Made by a program: the position numbers and the translations under genes
From: a virus
Reading direction: 5' to 3' (one strand)
UHGV virus genome: UHGV-0371215
DNA: 17,293 nt
Notes under the pieces: generated by a model
The model's input: only the letters and a program-made list of their open reading frames with translations
What the model was told of the DNA's origin: nothing
Databases searched by the model: none
Shown: one piece after another, positions 8,152 through 16,044 of the stretch
Position numbering within the stretch: the first letter of the stretch is position 1
Layout: each line of letters opens with the position of its first letter

Positions 8152-9069
8152 TTACAGGTAGTCAGCGACAACCAGTTGCAGCTTGCCCTTCATCTCGTTG
8201 GAGACAGTGGTATTGCCATCCGCGAACAGTTCACGGTTAAGCAGTTGCTCTGCGGCTTTTTCCAGCCCGACCGGTACAACGATATGTGTCGGCTTCAGGC
8301 CCAGCTTCTTACCGCCATCACCTTCAAACGCACGCATCAGTTGCCAGCCCTTCCAGAGGTTATCCAGCGTCAGATCACCTTTTACCGCAACAGCCATCTG
8401 CCAGAAGCCGTAACCGGCAGCACGGCGGGCGCTGGCACCAAACAGGAACTCGTTATCCATAAAAACGTGGTCGTCATCGATACGGGTACGTGCGACCAGT
8501 TCCGGTTTGCGGCGCTCCTGGAAAATCAGCGGTTTGACTGCGCGGGAGCAGTCCAGCAGATAGAACGGCAGACCGCTGAAGCTGTCCTGCTCAACGATGT
8601 TGGAGGTATTAACCGCGCTGCCCGTGCCGTCCACATTCGGATATACCGGATGCTCCTTGTCGAAGAAGTTCTGACCGTCATAGCACGGCTGGGTAAAGCC
8701 ATCTTTCAGAAGTTTAAAAATCAGCTCATCCGGCTGAACTGCCGCAGAACGGCCCATCTCCTGAAAAATCGGCGCATAAATACCCAGATTGTCATCCTCG
8801 AAGTCATCACGGGAAATACCAACGGTGCCTTCAAACGTTTTATTGGTGATGGAGTAGCCATGCGCTGCCATTTGCTGAATGGTTCGCTTACCCACCCATT
8901 CTTTCAGGGTCGGGAATTTACCCAGCCAGCCATAGGTATTACTGCGGGTGGAAGAGTTCACCACCATTGCAATTTTGTTGTACTGCGACGGGGCGTCTTC
9001 AAGACCGCCCTGAAAATCCTTACGCCAGGAGGTCATCAGGGCTTTAATGGATGCCGGGGTGACAATCAT
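8152..9069 (-). CDS. T: Major capsid protein (Mu gpT-like)
   Basis: 305-aa ORF, ATGA overlap with the I stop (9066-9069); followed by a stem-loop as is common for highly expressed capsid genes. Confidence 0.85.
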   Translation of the reverse strand: MIVTPASIKALMTSWRKDFQGGLEDAPSQYNKIAMVVNSSTRSNTYGWLGKFPTLKEWVGKRTIQQMAAHGYSITNKTFEGTVGISRDDFEDDNLGIYAPIFQEMGRSAAVQPDELIFKLLKDGFTQPCYDGQNFFDKEHPVYPNVDGTGSAVNTSNIVEQDSFSGLPFYLLDCSRAVKPLIFQERRKPELVARTRIDDDHVFMDNEFLFGASARRAAGYGFWQMAVAVKGDLTLDNLWKGWQLMRAFEGDGGKKLGLKPTHIVVPVGLEKAAEQLLNRELFADGNTTVSNEMKGKLQLVVADYL

Positions 9070-9617
9070 TTTTCTTGTTCCTGTTTCATTTTCAGATACT
9101 CAGCCTCTGTAATGCCGAGCGCCTTCACTGCTGCCTGTTCATCAGCAGACAGCACCGCCACCGCCGTTTTTTCCTGCGACGGGATTTTCGCTGTGGTGGT
9201 CTGCATGGCAGATAACGCAGCGATGGGCTGTTTTTTCTCAAGCTGTGCCGACAGTGCCGCCACGCCAATCTGACCGCCAAGCTGTTCCAGGTAAGTGCGT
9301 TCGCTTCTGAAAATGCGGCCCTCCTGTTCCGCCTTGTCCAGAACGGCGCTCAGGCTGGCGGTGGCGCTTTGTGCAGTCGCCTGTGCCAGTTCATCACGCA
9401 GGGCGTTGTAGCTTTCCACCGGGACGTATTTCGTCAGGTCAACGGCGGCTTTCTGTGCCTTTTCCAGTTCGGCAGACAACGCGGCCACTTTTCCGGCATT
9501 ACTTTCCAGCATGTCCAGCGCGGTCAGTGCCGCTGTTGCCTGTTCATCGGTGATGTCTGCATTTTCGGGGACCGTCACCCCAAGACGCGCAAGCAGCCTG
9601 CGCAGCGTTTCATTCAT
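9066..9617 (-). CDS. Z: Nested in-frame scaffold protein (Mu gpZ-like), from an internal start of I
   Basis: In-frame ATG at 9617-9615 (Met179 of I) preceded by AGGAGA 8 nt upstream; the downstream 183 residues are the coiled-coil-like part of I. Confidence 0.45.
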   Translation of the reverse strand: MNETLRRLLARLGVTVPENADITDEQATAALTALDMLESNAGKVAALSAELEKAQKAAVDLTKYVPVESYNALRDELAQATAQSATASLSAVLDKAEQEGRIFRSERTYLEQLGGQIGVAALSAQLEKKQPIAALSAMQTTTAKIPSQEKTAVAVLSADEQAAVKALGITEAEYLKMKQEQEK

Positions 9618-10151
9618 GGGTTTATTCTCCTGTTGAAGGATGTCGGGAAGGTCTGCCGCCAGTGCGGTCAGCTTTTTCATGCCGGTGGCACCGGGGTCAT
9701 TGGTCAGCGCAGCAAGGCGGATTTGCAGCACCGCACCGGTGGCGGTGTCATACGGAAAAACCGCAGAGAGATAACCAAATTCGCCGTCATCGATGCGCTG
9801 CTGTGCCGCCGCCGTCCAGCGTGGGTGGATAAATAATCCTTCACCTTCACGCCACTGCATTTCATCGGCGTTAAACCAGCCAGCCGCGACGAGTTGTTCC
9901 GGGGGTAATCCTTTGTCCTTACGTAGCTGGTTATGCTCGTAATCAATCAGCACGTCCTGGTTGAGCGCGCGAACGCCTTCAACCAGACGCCCGGCAATCT
10001 CACCGTCGATGAACCACCCCTGACCGCCTGTCACATCAAACGGACGACCATCACGGGCACTGAAATGACCGGCAGGCAATAGCTGGCACCAGCCGTCATC
10101 GTCAATGGACAGCGCACTCAGTGCGGCAATGCCAATCGCGTGTTTTTTCAT
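9066..10151 (-). CDS. I: Head maturation protease / scaffold (Mu gpI-like)
   Basis: 361-aa ORF; globular N-terminal half and Ala/Gln/Glu-rich predicted coiled-coil C-terminal half; position between G and T as in Mu. Confidence 0.85.
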   Translation of the reverse strand: MKKHAIGIAALSALSIDDDGWCQLLPAGHFSARDGRPFDVTGGQGWFIDGEIAGRLVEGVRALNQDVLIDYEHNQLRKDKGLPPEQLVAAGWFNADEMQWREGEGLFIHPRWTAAAQQRIDDGEFGYLSAVFPYDTATGAVLQIRLAALTNDPGATGMKKLTALAADLPDILQQENKPMNETLRRLLARLGVTVPENADITDEQATAALTALDMLESNAGKVAALSAELEKAQKAAVDLTKYVPVESYNALRDELAQATAQSATASLSAVLDKAEQEGRIFRSERTYLEQLGGQIGVAALSAQLEKKQPIAALSAMQTTTAKIPSQEKTAVAVLSADEQAAVKALGITEAEYLKMKQEQEK

Positions 10152-10347
10152 GTCCTGCTGCTCATCATGGTTTGTGAGCAGTCAGTTTGCGGGAGGTGCG
10201 GGAAAATCTGGGGTTATGCTATTTGAGTACTGGAGAAAGAAAGTGGAAGGAAGATAAAACGGGATTCATACACCGTTAAATACCGGTTTAAAAATCCCGT
10301 GGCGCGTTTTAAAAAATCTGTGCGGCTGATTTTATGTCTGATTCTGT
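10152..10347 (-). promoter_or_regulatory. G-I intergenic region: hairpin plus candidate late promoter for the I-T-tail operon
   Basis: 196-bp non-coding gap, the largest in the window; inverted repeat ACGGGATT/AATCCCGT (10259-10266 vs 10293-10300) followed by a U-rich run on the transcript; AT-rich stretch and an ATAACCCC tract about 60 bp upstream of the I start. No sigma-70 consensus identified. Confidence 0.3.
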
Positions 10348-10818
10348 TTATTGCCTCAGAGCGGCGCTGACGCGTTTTCTGATGGCATCAAAAATTTCCT
10401 GTTCCCCGGTCTTATCCAGCCCCATATAAGGACGTGCCGGAACGCCTGCCGGGCGGGGGGCCATATCGGGTGTGCCGCCCCACTGATGAATGGCCGCATA
10501 AATTTTTGGCGAACCAATCAGGGCATAATCCTGTCCATAATCGGTGGTAATGCTGCGTGCCAGATCGCCATGCAGGGTAAGAATACTGCCCGGAACAAAA
10601 CCATGATCCTGACGCCATGCCAGCCACGAATCGCTCCACGCTTCCCAGCCTTTCCCTGTATCCGGGTCGGCCTGCCGTTCAAATGCCTGTTCTGTGGATG
10701 ACAACAGTGCTGCGGCAATCGCACGGGGAATGGCACGATCCCGCGTCACCGTTTCCAGCTCACCAAGTGCGGTCTGAAGATGCCGGACATCCACCACGCT
10801 GTTCATATCAATACTCAT
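10348..10818 (-). CDS. G: Virion morphogenesis protein (Mu gpG-like)
   Basis: 156-aa ORF with a GAGGAG Shine-Dalgarno upstream of ATG 10818; position between F and I. Confidence 0.8.
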   Translation of the reverse strand: MSIDMNSVVDVRHLQTALGELETVTRDRAIPRAIAAALLSSTEQAFERQADPDTGKGWEAWSDSWLAWRQDHGFVPGSILTLHGDLARSITTDYGQDYALIGSPKIYAAIHQWGGTPDMAPRPAGVPARPYMGLDKTGEQEIFDAIRKRVSAALRQ

Positions 10819-10859
10819 GTATTGAGCTCCTCTTACATGAAAAATATACTGACGCTACA

Positions 10860-10938
10860 GGCGCTGTACGCTTAACGGTAAAGACGGTGTCAACCCCGCA
10901 GGGGAGCATGTATACAGGTTCGACTCCTGTCAGCGCCT
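10860..10938 (+). other. tRNA-like motif (T-arm plus acceptor stem only) in the F-G intergenic region; not a canonical tRNA
   Basis: ACAGG-TTCGACT-CCTGT (10914-10930) has a T-arm-like 5-bp stem and 7-nt loop, followed directly by CAGCGCC (10931-10937) that pairs perfectly with GGCGCTG (10860-10866); a T follows at the U8 position. I could not fold a D-arm or anticodon arm from the intervening 47 nt. Confidence 0.25.
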
Positions 10939-12272
10939 TAATCCAGCGTACCTTCCAGAATTTCAACCACACCCCCGGCAATATCCGATTTCAGGGCGCT
11001 GATGTCCGGCAGCCTGTATGCATTGATCAACACATCCAGACGGTCAGCCTGTCGCTTTAACGAATAAGCCGCATTGACCACCACCTTTGCGCTCCCGGTT
11101 CCGGTGCTGACCAGGTAAATCAGGTTATTGTGTCGCCTGTCCCAGAGCACCGCCTGCGGTTTTGCCAGCAGTGACGGCAGTAACCGCAAATCCTCAGGCA
11201 GCAGTGCAACCCCCGTTTTGTGGTGTTTCGGGCTGTCCGCATGAAGCAGGCTTTTTTCGCTCATTACCAGCAGTCTGGCCGGGGCTTCACCTGTTCGCGC
11301 CTGTACGGCATCTGCCACAGATTCAGTCATAAAACCCAGCGTCTGGATCCCGTGACCGGCACGGCGTGATTCGGTCAGACGTTTCACCCATAAGGAAAAA
11401 GCAAGCTGACGCTCCCGGCTGTTATTCAGCGTCTGTACAACCTGTTCACGCAATTGTGCGTCACGGACCTCCACCAGTTTTCGAATCAGCGCCTGATCCG
11501 TACCAAACGCCGCCGAACCCGGGTTATATGACCAGCCCACATCCGGCGTCATTTTTACCCGACCATTGTCAAACGTGGTCGACGATGTGCGGAAAATCTC
11601 TCCGGTGCTTTCATCCGTGCCGGCCTCCACTTCACGGGTATTCATGAATGACGCACCATAACTGACCTGTAGCCCCAGTTCTTTCATGCGGGCCGCAGAC
11701 AGCGCCCGGACGCGACAGCGGCAGTTCCAGCCATTGGGCGGGTAATGCGTCTGCCAGAAAATGTCGTCATACCGGAAAACCATATTGTGCAGCCGCGCAT
11801 GTTCCGGGCGTGTTCTGCCATCCATAACGGCAACGTACTGCCAGTACGGGTACAAATCGGCGGTATTCATCATCTGTGCATAACGTCCTACCCCATACGC
11901 CGTACGGGTATTGACGTTATAAATGGTTGCCAGACGACGCGGACTGCCCAGCTCGATTACCTTTGCGTTTCCGTCTGCATCCACGATGATTTGTTTTCCC
12001 CACCATCCGAGTTTTTGCAGCCGGGGGGCCAGTGTGCGGGTAAATTCTTCACGGGTGATGCCTTCACTGACAGCCCGCTCCACTTCCTCACGGATTGTGG
12101 TCAGGACATCCATCCGGGTGGCTTTGGCAACGGTAAAGGCGCGGGCGTGCGCGTCTGCCAGTTGTTCGTACCAGTTCCAGGTGATGTTGTAGCCTTTGGC
12201 GCGGAAATACGCGACAGCCTCCTTTGGCGGGAGGCGTGCGGCATACGCCAGATCAATGGTCTGCTGCGGCAT
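10938..12272 (-). CDS. F: Head morphogenesis protein, MuF (gp30) family, with about 150-aa C-terminal extension of unknown function
   Basis: ORF 10938-12308 in the track starts at GTG; ATG at 12272-12270 with a G-rich Shine-Dalgarno is the preferred start (444 aa). MuF-like core includes YPPNGWNCRCRV and PDVGWSYNPG; C-terminal about 150 residues (His/Arg/Lys-rich) follow the core. Confidence 0.8.
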   Translation of the reverse strand: MPQQTIDLAYAARLPPKEAVAYFRAKGYNITWNWYEQLADAHARAFTVAKATRMDVLTTIREEVERAVSEGITREEFTRTLAPRLQKLGWWGKQIIVDADGNAKVIELGSPRRLATIYNVNTRTAYGVGRYAQMMNTADLYPYWQYVAVMDGRTRPEHARLHNMVFRYDDIFWQTHYPPNGWNCRCRVRALSAARMKELGLQVSYGASFMNTREVEAGTDESTGEIFRTSSTTFDNGRVKMTPDVGWSYNPGSAAFGTDQALIRKLVEVRDAQLREQVVQTLNNSRERQLAFSLWVKRLTESRRAGHGIQTLGFMTESVADAVQARTGEAPARLLVMSEKSLLHADSPKHHKTGVALLPEDLRLLPSLLAKPQAVLWDRRHNNLIYLVSTGTGSAKVVVNAAYSLKRQADRLDVLINAYRLPDISALKSDIAGGVVEILEGTLD

Positions 12273-13791
12273 CCAGACGCCCCCATATATCGGCAACAAA
12301 AATGGCACGGGTCAGCATGTCGATAAGTTCTGCATCATCCATCTGCGGATATAATGAAGCGGCTTTGTTCATGGCGGCTTCCGGGCCATCTTTCAGCACA
12401 GAAAAAATGACGGGTTTCAGCAGGGAATCAACCGAACGCTGCCAGTCTTCCGGTGAGACGCCCATCCTGTCGATATCATCCTCCTGCGGGATATCTTCAG
12501 CGGATAATGCGGCCTCTTTCTGCGAACCGTTATCCGGGACAACAGGTTGAGCAGTAAACACGGCTTCATCACCGACCGGCTGTGGAATATGAAGTTTTTC
12601 CTGTATCCAGGAGACCGGAATACGCATTCCCGCCGCCAGTTTCGGAATGGCGTCAGACAGTGCCGTAATATCACCCGCTTCACTGGTATCAAATACAATG
12701 CCCGGCAGGCGGTTAATATCAATGGTGCTGTCACTGTTCAGTGCCAGCAGGGGATAAATCAGGTCACGGTTAATACTGCGGGCAAGCTGGCCCACATCCG
12801 CGTTACGGATTTCCCGGCGAACCTCATCATGCACTTCACCCAGTGACCGCGCACCTTTATCGCCAGCCTCTGTGGTCAGGGTGCCGCCCAGAATGGCTTT
12901 TGAAATCGCTTTTTCTGCCCAGCCAATCATTGCCATGAAAGGGTCAGACTGACCATCTGCGGCGCTCTGAAAATCCAGCGTCATCCCCATCGGAATAATG
13001 CCACCGGCACGTCGCCCGATATCCATCACGGCCTGCATCAGCGTGGCTTTCTCACGGTTCGTGGAGCCGGTCGGATATTTACCGACGCGCATGGGAAGTC
13101 CGTAAATTTCCAGAAACTCTGCAAAATCACGCACGGAATAGTTTTTAAAAATAAAAGGCCAGATAAGCGTGCGCACAAGGCCATTGGTGCCAACGTACCC
13201 GGTGCGGGATTTGGCCCGGTGCATAAACCAGCCGAACGGTTGCAGCTCCAGCCCGTGATAAGACGTATCACGCAGACGTAATTCGTTCAGATTATCGGGG
13301 TTCGCGCAGAACAGCGCCGGATCGCGATGATGCAGCGCCACCGGCACGCGCATTTTGCCCAGCCAGCCCCATTCAATCTCCTGCATGGAATAACCCTTGA
13401 GAATGGCATCACCGGCATCAAACAGGGCATCTTCAAACCACGCCGCATCATGCAGATATTCATTCAGCATGTCGGCGTCTTTTTTCTCCTGTGCGCTGGC
13501 ATCACGTGCCGGAGCGATGCGCCATTCCAGCGCCTGAATGGCAAGGCGGCGCTTGCTCAGTTCGGAAAAAAGGTGGGTGTCCTTTTCTTCCATATCAAAG
13601 GCCAGGTCAGCCTGTGCGGTCAGATCACCGCGTTCGGCATCACGCAGCATCTGCGCGGCCCGGTTCGGCGTCACACCACTGGAAGGATGCTCCTGCGTAC
13701 GCTTCATGACCATTGCCAGCTCATCGCTGCGGGTCTGCATTTCATCGTCAAAATCAAACGGCTGCCCGGAAATATCCAGAATACGGCCCAT
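12253..13791 (-). CDS. H: Portal protein (Mu gp29/H-like, DUF935 family)
   Basis: 512-aa ORF; ATG at 13791-13789 shares one nt with the terminase stop (TAATG); position between terminase and F. Confidence 0.85.
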   Translation of the reverse strand: MGRILDISGQPFDFDDEMQTRSDELAMVMKRTQEHPSSGVTPNRAAQMLRDAERGDLTAQADLAFDMEEKDTHLFSELSKRRLAIQALEWRIAPARDASAQEKKDADMLNEYLHDAAWFEDALFDAGDAILKGYSMQEIEWGWLGKMRVPVALHHRDPALFCANPDNLNELRLRDTSYHGLELQPFGWFMHRAKSRTGYVGTNGLVRTLIWPFIFKNYSVRDFAEFLEIYGLPMRVGKYPTGSTNREKATLMQAVMDIGRRAGGIIPMGMTLDFQSAADGQSDPFMAMIGWAEKAISKAILGGTLTTEAGDKGARSLGEVHDEVRREIRNADVGQLARSINRDLIYPLLALNSDSTIDINRLPGIVFDTSEAGDITALSDAIPKLAAGMRIPVSWIQEKLHIPQPVGDEAVFTAQPVVPDNGSQKEAALSAEDIPQEDDIDRMGVSPEDWQRSVDSLLKPVIFSVLKDGPEAAMNKAASLYPQMDDAELIDMLTRAIFVADIWGRLDAAADH

Positions 13792-15446
13792 TACCAGCCC
13801 CCTCGTTCAAACTGGTGATAATCATCAAAATCATCGTTATCAACATCATCACCACGGTGGCGTGGTGGCAGCGCCTGTATGCTGTTCTCGTCGATAACAA
13901 AACCATTCATATAAGACGCCCTGACAGCCATACAGAGCGCCACGGCAAAGTCGCCATGTCGTCGGCCTTTACCACCTTCATCTTTTGTGCGCCCCTTATC
14001 AATCTGCGGAATACCTTTGTCCACCTTGATGTGGAGCAGGTCATCAAGAGTGGTCTGGTGCCGGGCAATCGTGATGTTCTGCGCTTCAAACTCGCCTTTC
14101 AGTTTTGGCATCCACTCCTGATACCAGGATGCGGTCAGATTCACACAGTCGATCATCTCCGGGCCATAAATCAGACGGGCGGCTTCTGCCAGATAACCGC
14201 CGTTACCGGTGGCATCAAATGCAGCGCCGGTAAAACGGGGCAAACGGGACAGAATGAATAAAAGGATTTGTCGCTGCTGGCCATAGGTCACATTACGCAG
14301 CTCCACGCGGAAACATTCGCGTTTGCGTAAGTCAGGCGTGATGGCAAGTGGCACAAACACCGTCAGGTCGCCACGGCGTGCAAAGTCTTCGCCCAGTACG
14401 TGTTTATTGAGCGGCGACAGCGCATCGAGCAACGGGAGCAGCTCCTGTTCACACCAGTCCTGAACGATGCCGTGGCGCATTTGTGGTGTCAGCGATTCAA
14501 AATCGTCCGGGGCTTCAAAACGCAGAATCGGGATATCCCGCACTGGCGTCATGGCGGCTTCAATCAGCACGCGTGACAGATAAGCGCCCCCGGATTTTTT
14601 GGGAATGCAGCCGTATTCCTCGTCGGCACTCTCTTTATTCGGCGCATTCCGGTACAGGCCATCACGCCAGGCTTTTTCCGCTTCCGGCGACCACGGCTGA
14701 TTCGTGACGTAACAGATACGTCGGTATAACCCGTCAGTGATGGCATCATCCAGCGTGATGCGGTGAACGCTGTAATCCTTGCGCCCCTCGCGCGCATCCT
14801 GAATGTACTGATTAAACAGATTATCGACGCCGTTATGTGTCGATATGATGCGCACGCTGGCACCCCACATGTTTAGTGCAAAGGCCGCTTTCAGCAGTTC
14901 GTCCAGGGCTTCATGGAATGCCGCCTCATCAATCACCACGTCCCCCTGCAATCCACGCAGGTTAGACGGGCGGCTTGACAGAGCCTGTATCTTAAATCCG
15001 CTGTTCGGAAAGCGGATCATGTAGGTGAGGATTTCTTCTTTTTTGTCGCTGTCCCAGAAGGTCTGCTCCCAGACATCAGCCTTTGCCAGCTGGTTAAAGG
15101 CGCGGGCAAACAGGGCACAGGCGGCGATGTATTCCAGCGCCATTTCCTGACGGGAACCCACATAAAAGACGTTGCGACCACCGCGACGCTTCGGCTTTGC
15201 GGCCGTCATGACATTGCGGCCCGCTTCAGCCCATGTCAGACCGGTACGACGGGATTTTTCAGCGATGCAAATCTGGCTTTCATCCTCAAACCAGCGGCGC
15301 TGATAGCCCAGAAAAACCGGTTCATTGCGGGGTTGTGCTTCCCCGATATCGGTCACGATATTCACGCCGAGCAGTCCGGCTTCCTCACGCAGGTTGATTT
15401 TTCGGGGGGCATGAAGGGCTTTAAGGTTGTTTTCTCTGGTGTTCAT
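13791..15446 (-). CDS. Terminase large subunit (Mu gp28-like)
   Basis: Track ORF 13791-15638 starts at an upstream alternative start that would overlap the small terminase gene; ATG at 15446-15444 (MNTRENNLKALH...) follows an AGAGGG Shine-Dalgarno and lies 7 nt after the small terminase stop, giving 551 aa; contains a DEAAF Walker-B-like segment. Confidence 0.8.
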   Translation of the reverse strand: MNTRENNLKALHAPRKINLREEAGLLGVNIVTDIGEAQPRNEPVFLGYQRRWFEDESQICIAEKSRRTGLTWAEAGRNVMTAAKPKRRGGRNVFYVGSRQEMALEYIAACALFARAFNQLAKADVWEQTFWDSDKKEEILTYMIRFPNSGFKIQALSSRPSNLRGLQGDVVIDEAAFHEALDELLKAAFALNMWGASVRIISTHNGVDNLFNQYIQDAREGRKDYSVHRITLDDAITDGLYRRICYVTNQPWSPEAEKAWRDGLYRNAPNKESADEEYGCIPKKSGGAYLSRVLIEAAMTPVRDIPILRFEAPDDFESLTPQMRHGIVQDWCEQELLPLLDALSPLNKHVLGEDFARRGDLTVFVPLAITPDLRKRECFRVELRNVTYGQQRQILLFILSRLPRFTGAAFDATGNGGYLAEAARLIYGPEMIDCVNLTASWYQEWMPKLKGEFEAQNITIARHQTTLDDLLHIKVDKGIPQIDKGRTKDEGGKGRRHGDFAVALCMAVRASYMNGFVIDENSIQALPPRHRGDDVDNDDFDDYHQFERGGW

Positions 15447-15453
15447 AACCCTC

Positions 15454-16044
15454 TCATGCCTTACCCAGCAGCACATCACGGATACGCTGCTCCAGCTCTT
15501 CGCTGATGCCATCCTGCCCGCGCAGTTCTTCACTGACGGCGTTTGCCGCTTCTTCTGCGAATGCCTGGCGGATTTCTTTCTCGCGCCGGTGGCTGGACAT
15601 TGCCGTGGATTCCAGACGCTGTGCCGCCAGCATGGCATTTTTCAGCAGGTCAATATCCACGTCAGATTCCGGGTTTTCGATTTGCCGCATCATGGCCTTA
15701 AAAAGCTGGCTGCGGGCCATTTCCAGAATCAGCTTTGTGGTTTCTCCCATTGGCTTGTCGCCAAGTTCTGCGGTCAGTGCTGACGTCATTTCACGCATCT
15801 GTCGCAGGTTATGGCCTACCTGCTCGACGTTCGTCGCGTAACGGTTCAGACCGGAACGGGAGAGTTTCATCTCATCCGGCAGGCCAGCGTCTTCAATCAG
15901 TGCGTTAATTTCTTCCAGAATGCGGGCCTGTGGGATCGCCTTATCACGCAGCATTTCATGCAGCGTTTTACGTACGTTTTCCGGCAGTAAATCCACTTTT
16001 GAAGCCCGGCCCCGTGTTTTCCTGTCCATCACGCCTCCTGTCAT
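15454..16044 (-). CDS. Terminase small subunit-like protein (Mu gp27-like, DUF3486-type)
   Basis: 196-aa charged, coiled-coil-rich ORF directly upstream of the large terminase; ATGA overlap with the upstream gene. Confidence 0.7.
   Translation of the reverse strand: MTGGVMDRKTRGRASKVDLLPENVRKTLHEMLRDKAIPQARILEEINALIEDAGLPDEMKLSRSGLNRYATNVEQVGHNLRQMREMTSALTAELGDKPMGETTKLILEMARSQLFKAMMRQIENPESDVDIDLLKNAMLAAQRLESTAMSSHRREKEIRQAFAEEAANAVSEELRGQDGISEELEQRIRDVLLGKA

Follow-up and report, generated by a model that had tools for sequence, protein, structure and literature searches.

A tRNA-like RNA gene co-occurs with the histidine-bearing MuF-C tail of protein F in Mu-type phages

By analyzing a stretch of viral DNA of 17,293 nucleotides, UHGV virus genome UHGV-0371215 (hereafter the window), which covers the late region of a Muvirus (Mu-type) phage or prophage with its late genes on the minus strand, we found that the minor head protein F ends in a domain with a pair of histidines, H356 and H362, and that a previously uncharacterized gene lies beside the end of F on the opposite strand. 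This gene encodes a transcribable, structurally constrained tRNA mimic that has no anticodon loop. The His-pair tail and the RNA co-occur, the RNA being present in 140 of 141 loci with the pair and in none of 27 loci without it. Taken together, the two may be read, with about equal weight for and against, as an active-form tail resembling the phage BECR-fold ribonucleases (RNases; PBECR), carried as a passenger of the virion, with the tRNA-mimic RNA as its partner and plausibly its inhibitor. Residue numbers throughout refer to the 456-aa open reading frame (ORF) of F that begins at GTG 12308.

Co-occurrence of the RNA and the histidine pair

Loci were gathered via the tail protein (93 loci), via a DNA pattern (119) and via homologs without the histidines (44), and the association was counted over 168 related loci divided into tail classes (Table 1). 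The 140 His-pair loci with the RNA comprised 137 found by a strict script and three more found by a covariance model, and the sole His-pair locus without the RNA has a rearranged tail. From all of the other classes the RNA was absent, also with the filters of the covariance model switched off. The 27 loci without the His pair represent at least three apparently independent lineages. In a rough neighbor-joining tree of the tails, the Mu-type clade was nested inside the enterobacterial His clade and the QH clade in a different His subclade, while the AS tail branched deep. In the QH and AS loci, the genes F and G abut or overlap, as they do in Mu.

Table 1. Tail classes of protein F and presence of the tRNA-like RNA.
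Tail class	Loci	Distinct tails	Loci with RNA
HH (His pair, 356/362)	141	74	140
Mu-type (T, deletion)	19	15	0
QH	4	2	0
HK	3	3	0
AS	1	1	0

A GC-rich clade with a tail identity of only about 25% has kept both the His pair and the RNA, the latter as two tandem copies. Such tandem copies were seen only in the loci L195 (5392-5472 and 5523-5608), which is GC-rich and has a distant F tail, and L141 (4523-4604 and 4613-4681), which is at a contig edge; the second copies score 25-28 bits. The RNA was also found in a Mu-like prophage within an Stx phage, where the F tail is 60% identical and the acceptor and T stems are fully compensated. When IMG/VR was scanned with the pattern, every well-formed copy was convergent with an abutting MuF_C ORF, at a distance of -4 to +33 nucleotides (nt), bar six exceptions, namely three copies at locus edges and three related contigs. 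The hosts of the RNA include E. coli, Salmonella, Citrobacter, Erwinia, Edwardsiella and marine Gammaproteobacteria.

The tRNA-like RNA gene and its promoter

The 79-nt RNA gene (Table 2) reaches the end of F so closely that its last base, 10938, is the third base of the F stop codon. The RNA has a 7-bp acceptor stem, a D arm and a T arm with the T loop UUCGACU, and a GUGU/GCAU-CCCC(GCA)GGGG hairpin in place of the anticodon stem-loop. In a local search it matched the Rfam tRNA family (RF00005) with 32.4 bits, against a gathering score of 29, the 24-nt central region being skipped. A run of the whole window against Rfam with default filters and the gathering cut-off returned nothing, and tRNA-like elements of this kind are easy to miss, since the match appears only in an E-value search of a short region. 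ARAGORN called no tRNA in the window or in most relatives, and elsewhere reported a "tRNA-???" with a 2-nt anticodon; in RefSeq, the label "tRNA-OTHER" is given to the copy of the E. coli O157 type, for example at NZ_CP027340 2287610-2287689. Our own covariance model (R1), which recovers the copies independently of the acceptor-pair delimiting described below, scored 83 bits at 10860-10938, its only match in the window.

The structure was evaluated in 31 distinct copies (alignment A6), in which 96.3% of the cells were paired and 15 of 19 pairs had changed on both sides, the support for the acceptor helix being partly selected because copies were delimited by at least six of the seven acceptor pairs (the D, T and central stems were unselected). 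The covariation score was 0.578 as compared to 0.233 in shuffles, a level reached by none of 500 shuffles, and when the pairing partners were slid just 35-54% of the cells could pair. Each of the seven acceptor pairs shows compensatory changes, as do pairs of the T arm, the D arm and the proximal central arm, and these changes span Enterobacterales, Alishewanella, Marinobacterium and GC-rich hosts, while U8, A9, the GG of the D loop and the UUCGA of the T loop are invariant. The central arm varies in both length and sequence, and forms stable hairpins with loops of 3-4 nt that are often capped by UUCG or CUUG tetraloops.

Several other identities were considered for this element. An RNA with such a variable, tetraloop-capped central arm cannot decode; the 24-nt central region does not form a five-bp anticodon stem with a 7-nt loop, and a genuine tRNA was rejected on the grounds of the ARAGORN result and a central arm unable to present an anticodon. 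A structure on the sense strand, i.e. in the late mRNA, was likewise rejected, as the frequent G-U pairs (columns 11-26, 29-66 and 71-88) would there become C-A. These G-U pairs identify the antisense strand as the functional one, and it is also on this strand only that the T-loop and D-loop signatures can be read. Y RNA, YrlA or another curated RNA family was dismissed since Rfam matched the gene to tRNA and to no other family. It is hardly credible that the RNA is a decaying tRNA pseudogene or attachment-site remnant and that the His pair persists by phylogenetic inertia: the silence of ARAGORN and the "tRNA-OTHER" label would suit such a remnant, but the compensatory changes, the conserved promoter and the stable, often tetraloop-capped central hairpins would not, and on the covariation and the promoter it was rejected.

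The sigma-70-like promoter of the gene (Table 2) is the only promoter-like site in 10600-11300, and its -10 hexamer ends 9 nt before the 5' end of the acceptor stem. A -10 hexamer with at least 5/6 agreement was located 8-13 nt upstream in 36 out of 38 distinct copies. No paper on a tRNA-like RNA in Mu-like phages was found in the literature searched, which is not proof of absence.

The tail of F is the regular MuF-C domain of its family

A sequence-only reading of the window had suggested that the tail of F lies beyond the recognizable MuF core as a C-terminal extension, possibly a cargo or effector domain. The ORF, the coordinates and the residues it quoted (LLHADSPKHH at 11220-11249, and WDRRHNN) were correct. 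It is also true that the Phage_Mu_F core (PF04233) occupies just residues 71-200 (11709-12098, minus strand; Pfam E 4e-31), the same N-terminal core being matched by the NCBIfam phageSPP1_gp7 domain. However, the tail is no extension relative to canonical Mu gpF, since the alignment of the window F with the 439-aa Mu gp30 extends to the C-terminal end of both, the two being 82% identical over 445 columns; this is the outcome that the sequence-only reading had itself named as refuting an extension. The last approximately 120 aa are about 50% identical, and the sole length difference is an indel of 7-8 residues at HADSPKHH.

The region 10941-11411 on the minus strand translates to RQLAFSLWVKRL...EGTLD, corresponding to F residues 300-456. 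Within it, PF18819 (MuF_C) was matched at residues 359-432 (11013-11234, minus strand), with 29.2 bits for the whole protein and 31.8 bits for the tail alone as compared to a gathering cut-off of 27.6; the tail of Mu itself scores below this cut-off, at 21 bits. A profile search with the tail gave 383 clusters at 50% identity. Among 78 full-length homolog clusters, Phage_Mu_F was found in 76 and MuF_C in 37, while PBECR3 was matched by 10 and PBECR2 by one; the individually inspected matches to these two models lay in the same C-terminal region and scored 18-21 bits, with cut-offs of 27-30. The tail of the window F itself had no match to the Pfam models PBECR1-5 at E <= 1. Some unusual architectures were seen among the tail homologs: P0209 (759 aa) is a MuF protein split by an intein-splicing domain, and P0237 (525 aa) joins an MFS-transporter-like N-terminus to MuF_C, possibly as a gene-calling artefact. 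A giant repeat protein of 3721 aa, P0162, gave 30 short and probably spurious matches to the tail.

Residues of approximately 300-456 are thus the regular MuF-C domain of the Mu F family and not an add-on. As a finding, the tail is largely explained already, being a published predicted RNase domain that is shared with Mu. The idea of a tail that is swapped or variable between Mu-like F proteins did not hold, as the same homologous domain was found throughout. That a toxin or cargo domain of foreign origin has been joined to the MuF core, in the manner of the MuF polymorphic toxins, is very improbable. Such a fusion would account for the tail being the part of the gene most divergent from Mu and lying within a recombinant patch, but it is contradicted by the full alignment with the Mu gp30 tail, by the same domain ending F in 76 of the 78 full-length clusters and by the lack of an immunity ORF downstream: the 119-nt spacer has no small ORF of this kind, and the next gene is G. 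A foreign or swapped toxin domain was rejected on the full-length alignment and the general presence of the domain in F proteins. PADLOC gave no match for F.

Conserved residues and the recombinant patch

Both histidine clusters of the tail had been put forward as catalytic candidates in the sequence-only reading, and only one of them stood up. Among 132 cluster representatives of the whole family, position 356 is His in 66% and position 362 in 54% (Lys in 31%), so that H356 and H362 of HADSPKHH are conserved family-wide, while the His of WDRRHNN is retained in 23 of 131 representatives (18%), and this motif was rejected as catalytic because of its poor conservation. The K-x-L-L-H-A-D-S-x-K-H motif is common to enterobacterial and more distant relatives; Mu, D108, SfMu and Yersinia Mu phages instead have SLATTADA and a deletion. 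In the 74 distinct tails of the window's own subtype (with the His pair), H356, H362 and K/R418 are kept without exception, Y/F431 in 73, K352, S359 and N429 in 72 each, D358 and K361 in 70 each, and N412 in 65. The Mu-type tails have H356T, a deletion of 358-362, N412R, Y415Q, K418G/S, N429S and Y431S, and retain the hydrophobic core residues together with D390, Y398, D425 and R432. From this pattern, the polar set looks like an active site that has been maintained in the window allele and has decayed in Mu, and the window tail is probably the ancestral, catalytically competent form of a PBECR-type RNase-like fold.

The His-bearing tail allele arrived as a recombinant patch of about 0.6 kb in a late region that is otherwise about 97% identical to Mu. 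Within this patch, 10831-11135 has no similarity to Mu at the blastn level, and from 11136 to approximately 11400 the identity is down to roughly 70-75%, whereas it is 95% at the DNA level over codons 1-335 of F and 97% again from the start of G. The patch also carries the tRNA-like gene, which lies in a 119-nt spacer between F and G; in Mu, these two genes overlap by 4 nt. No megablast match to the window-type patch was found in 5,426 complete E. coli genomes. The exact 444-aa F occurs in draft assemblies of E. coli, Shigella boydii, Cronobacter sakazakii and E. albertii as well as in a metagenome contig (L003), and the E. coli O157-type patch of F tail and spacer, with the tRNA-like gene, is present in 228 of the 5,426 complete genomes. 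The earlier intuition regarding the histidines was right, and it led to a recombinant, "intact" allele and an uncharacterized tRNA-mimic gene.

Predicted fold and the RNase assignment

MuF-C has been assigned to the PBECR class, with the Mu copy classified as inactive and perhaps RNA-binding, and orthologs with intact active sites as likely RNases (Iyer, Burroughs, Anand, de Souza & Aravind 2017, PMC5512222). The window thus carries the version of MuF-C that was predicted to be active in that work. An AlphaFold2 model of residues 300-456, built from an alignment of 23 sequences, had a predicted local distance difference test score (pLDDT) of 84 and a predicted template modeling score (pTM) of 0.81. 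It is an alpha+beta unit in which H356 and H362 lie on a helical segment that precedes four strands (helices 52-58 and 61-66, and strands 87-91, 96-103, 106-113 and 128-134, in tail numbering), i.e. a predicted BECR-like core with a helix at 351-365 and four strands within 386-433. This predicted layout and the conserved histidines of the helix fit the published PBECR features. In BFVD, a database of predicted viral structures, the whole 157-residue unit was matched over about 155 residues with template modeling (TM) scores of 0.5-0.7. The matches comprised a solo protein of 165 aa, tails of minor capsid proteins and multidomain phage proteins of about 900 aa, which is the solo, MuF-fused and polyvalent distribution described in PMC5512222.

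The structure prediction that had been proposed in the sequence-only reading thus gave a confident alpha+beta fold with a His-bearing helix, but a Foldseek search of the model against PDB returned nothing at E < 0.1, and a sequence search of PDB with the tail gave nothing meaningful. BECR-fold tRNases (colicin D/ImmD, colicin E5 and CdiA-CT toxins) were weak structural neighbors of the model. Our data are consistent with the BECR assignment of the tail, although they do not independently prove it.

Possible roles of the tail and the RNA

From the conserved residues and the co-occurrence, we infer catalysis by the tail and a functional link between tail and RNA. By analogy with SPP1 gp7, the N-terminal MuF domain would take F into the head at the portal; packaging of F in the virion is assumed because gp7, a member of the MuF family, enters the head there. 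The tail RNase domain would then ride in the virion, be released into the infected cell together with the DNA, and cleave RNA in that cell. The tRNA-like RNA would be a non-cleavable tRNA mimic that occupies the enzyme, binding its tRNA-recognition surface without presenting a scissile anticodon loop to cut. Made from its own promoter in lysogens and in late infection, it might shield a cell that is producing phage late in infection, and keep lysogens safe from the enzyme that related phages bring in. In its most specific form, i.e. the RNA as a dedicated inhibitor (an "immunity RNA") of a virion-delivered BECR-type tRNase domain on Mu F, this is a tentative proposal that we consider rather unlikely as it stands. 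BECR toxins commonly cut tRNA anticodon loops, as colicins D and E5 do, and an inhibitor or immunity role is favored because exactly that loop is lacking in the mimic, because the RNA sits where immunity genes follow MuF toxins and because an independent promoter could work in lysogens.

A number of observations weigh against the interpretation as an RNase and its RNA partner. The HK-type tails also lack the RNA, the independent losses are few, and the RNA and the His pair are physically linked. The strand-4 residue of the window F is Asn (N429), not Ser or Thr; in the 132 representatives this position is N in 44, T in 34 and S in 26, and Ser/Thr in strand 4 is described as a common but not obligatory configuration of PBECR (PMC5512222). 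Fold-level support for an RNase fold is weak, and no biochemistry of any PBECR domain was found in the literature searched, which is not proof of absence. Lastly, the RNA was found without an F tail in L205 (2294-2367), L135 (13257-13330) and L188 (429-502), where a gene for a 393-aa DUF2971 protein (PADLOC candidate PDC-S31) follows it 210 nt downstream in the same orientation. In L205, a 786-aa AAA_13 gene (PDC-S06) is found nearby, in a rearranged Mu-like region with gpT next to Mor. These contigs hint that the RNA is able to act in other, possibly defense-related contexts.

It is possible, if somewhat doubtful, that the tail is instead non-catalytic, with a structural or nucleic-acid-binding role in head assembly or DNA piloting, and that the RNA has an unrelated job. 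The conserved polar residues would in that case bind DNA, RNA or the portal, and the RNA would control F and G by antisense or transcription interference, or serve as a decoy against host defense nucleases that target tRNA. Mu works with a tail devoid of the His pair, so catalysis is dispensable for morphogenesis; RNA binding has been proposed for the Mu version (PMC5512222), SPP1 gp7 is a DNA-binding partner of the portal (cited in PMC5576092), and the fold searches leave the RNase fold not firmly established. An antisense function would agree with the -35 hexamer of the promoter overlapping the Shine-Dalgarno sequence of G on the opposite strand and with the RNA running into the 3' end of F. 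In the three contigs, moreover, the RNA lies beside candidate defense genes and not F. On the other hand, ten polar positions are kept across the 74 tails and are lost jointly in just those tails that have no RNA beside them, and a pure antisense regulator would have no need for the conserved GG of the D loop, the UUCGA of the T loop or a compensated acceptor stem.

The same co-occurrence and adjacency could also be explained by the RNA being a substrate, cofactor or co-packaged partner of the domain, either processed by it or loaded into the head as an F-RNA complex, and the tandem copies in L195 and L141 do recall processed arrays. We regard this as improbable: there is no sign of processing sites, a convergent gene with a promoter of its own does not suggest co-transcription and, to our knowledge, packaging of RNA in Mu heads is not known.

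Genomic context of the window

Across 97% of its length, the window shares about 97% identity with Mu, D108, SfMu and relatives. The order portal-F-G is the same as in Mu, and the MuF-domain protein F is encoded directly downstream of the portal gene, a feature of MuF polymorphic toxins. The mechanical ORF of F (10938-12308, minus strand, 456 aa) begins at GTG 12308, 12 codons upstream of ATG 12272, which is the likely start because Mu has the same start and because the resulting 444 aa is the length of database proteins with exactly this F sequence. The start region of F overlaps the end of the portal gene. The G-I spacer (10152-10347) is 196 nt long, non-coding and about 97% identical to Mu, and corresponds to the Mu region with the annotated central gyrase cut site (L001 4843-4844, approximately 20 nt after G).

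Table 2. Features of the window, with positions counted from its first nucleotide.
Feature	Position	Strand	Remarks
Terminase large subunit	13791-15638	minus	
Portal gene	12253-13791	minus	Stop at 12253-12255
Gene F (Mu gp30 ortholog, minor head / virion morphogenesis protein)	10938-12272	minus	444 aa from ATG 12272
C-terminal alpha+beta unit of F, residues 300-456	10941-11411	minus	Pfam, AlphaFold2 and BFVD matches
LLHADSPKHH, residues 354-363 of F	11220-11249	minus	Helix with H356 and H362, predicted catalytic histidines
Mosaic patch relative to phage Mu	10831-11400		About 0.6 kb
tRNA-like RNA gene, 79 nt	10860-10938	plus	Antisense to late genes; Rfam tRNA and covariance model R1
Sigma-70-like promoter of the tRNA-like gene	10822-10850	plus	TTGAGC, 17 nt, TATACT
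Gene G (Mu gp31 ortholog)	10348-10818	minus	
Protease/scaffold I	9066-10151	minus	
Major head protein T	8152-9069	minus	Tail genes after T

Significance and comparison with known systems

The function of Mu F (gp30), and of the very common MuF-C/PBECR domains, is still a matter of prediction only. The present locus is a natural near-isogenic contrast to Mu, in that a late region with 97% identity has kept the putative catalytic residues, and the MuF-C RNase prediction is therefore directly testable. It also contains a widespread tRNA-like gene, at best annotated as "tRNA-OTHER", that is so closely tied to the His-bearing tail as to suggest that an RNase carried in the virion has an RNA partner. 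Should this partner be inhibitory, it would represent an immunity or antitoxin element of a new class and would explain why no immunity protein accompanies MuF-C domains. An immunity RNA of this kind would pair toxin and immunity in a new way, and would give tRNA mimicry a new role in conflicts between phages and hosts and among phages.

The closest known system is Mu gp30, which is orthologous to the window F, with the same domain order and genomic position and a PF18819 tail that aligns end to end. It differs by the absence of H356 and residues 358-362 and by substitutions at N412, Y415, K418, N429 and Y431, and Mu has neither the F-G spacer nor a tRNA-like gene before G; D108 and SfMu likewise lack the RNA gene. 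The MuF polymorphic toxins, in which exchangeable, unrelated toxin tails are followed by a small immunity ORF (Jamet et al. 2017, PMC5576092, where Mu GpF is treated as monodomain), resemble the window in having the MuF domain right after the portal, a C-terminal toxin-type fold and a protective element expected downstream. However, the window tail is a conserved family domain instead of a variable one, and what lies downstream is a gene for an RNA, encoded on the other strand. SPP1 gp7, which binds the portal and is present in 1-2 copies per capsid (PMC5576092), has the MuF core in common with the window F but no MuF-C tail.

With colicin D/ImmD, colicin E5 and the CdiA-CT toxins, the tail as predicted would have in common a small RNase fold that works independently of metal and bears a His in its N-terminal helix. 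Among bacterial non-coding RNAs that mimic tRNA are the tRNA-like module of YrlA / Y RNA and the tRNA-like domain of tmRNA, which are similar to the window RNA in their mimicry of the acceptor, T arm and D arm without decoding; the window RNA, on the other hand, has no Ro-binding helix, G3-U70 pair, encoded CCA or mRNA-like part. Finally, the type III toxin-antitoxin systems such as ToxIN (PMC8860590) provide the concept of an endoRNase neutralized by an adjacent structured RNA, although ToxI consists of tandem repeats that lie upstream on the same strand, are processed by the toxin and form pseudoknots, whereas the window has a single, convergent, tRNA-shaped RNA with its own promoter.

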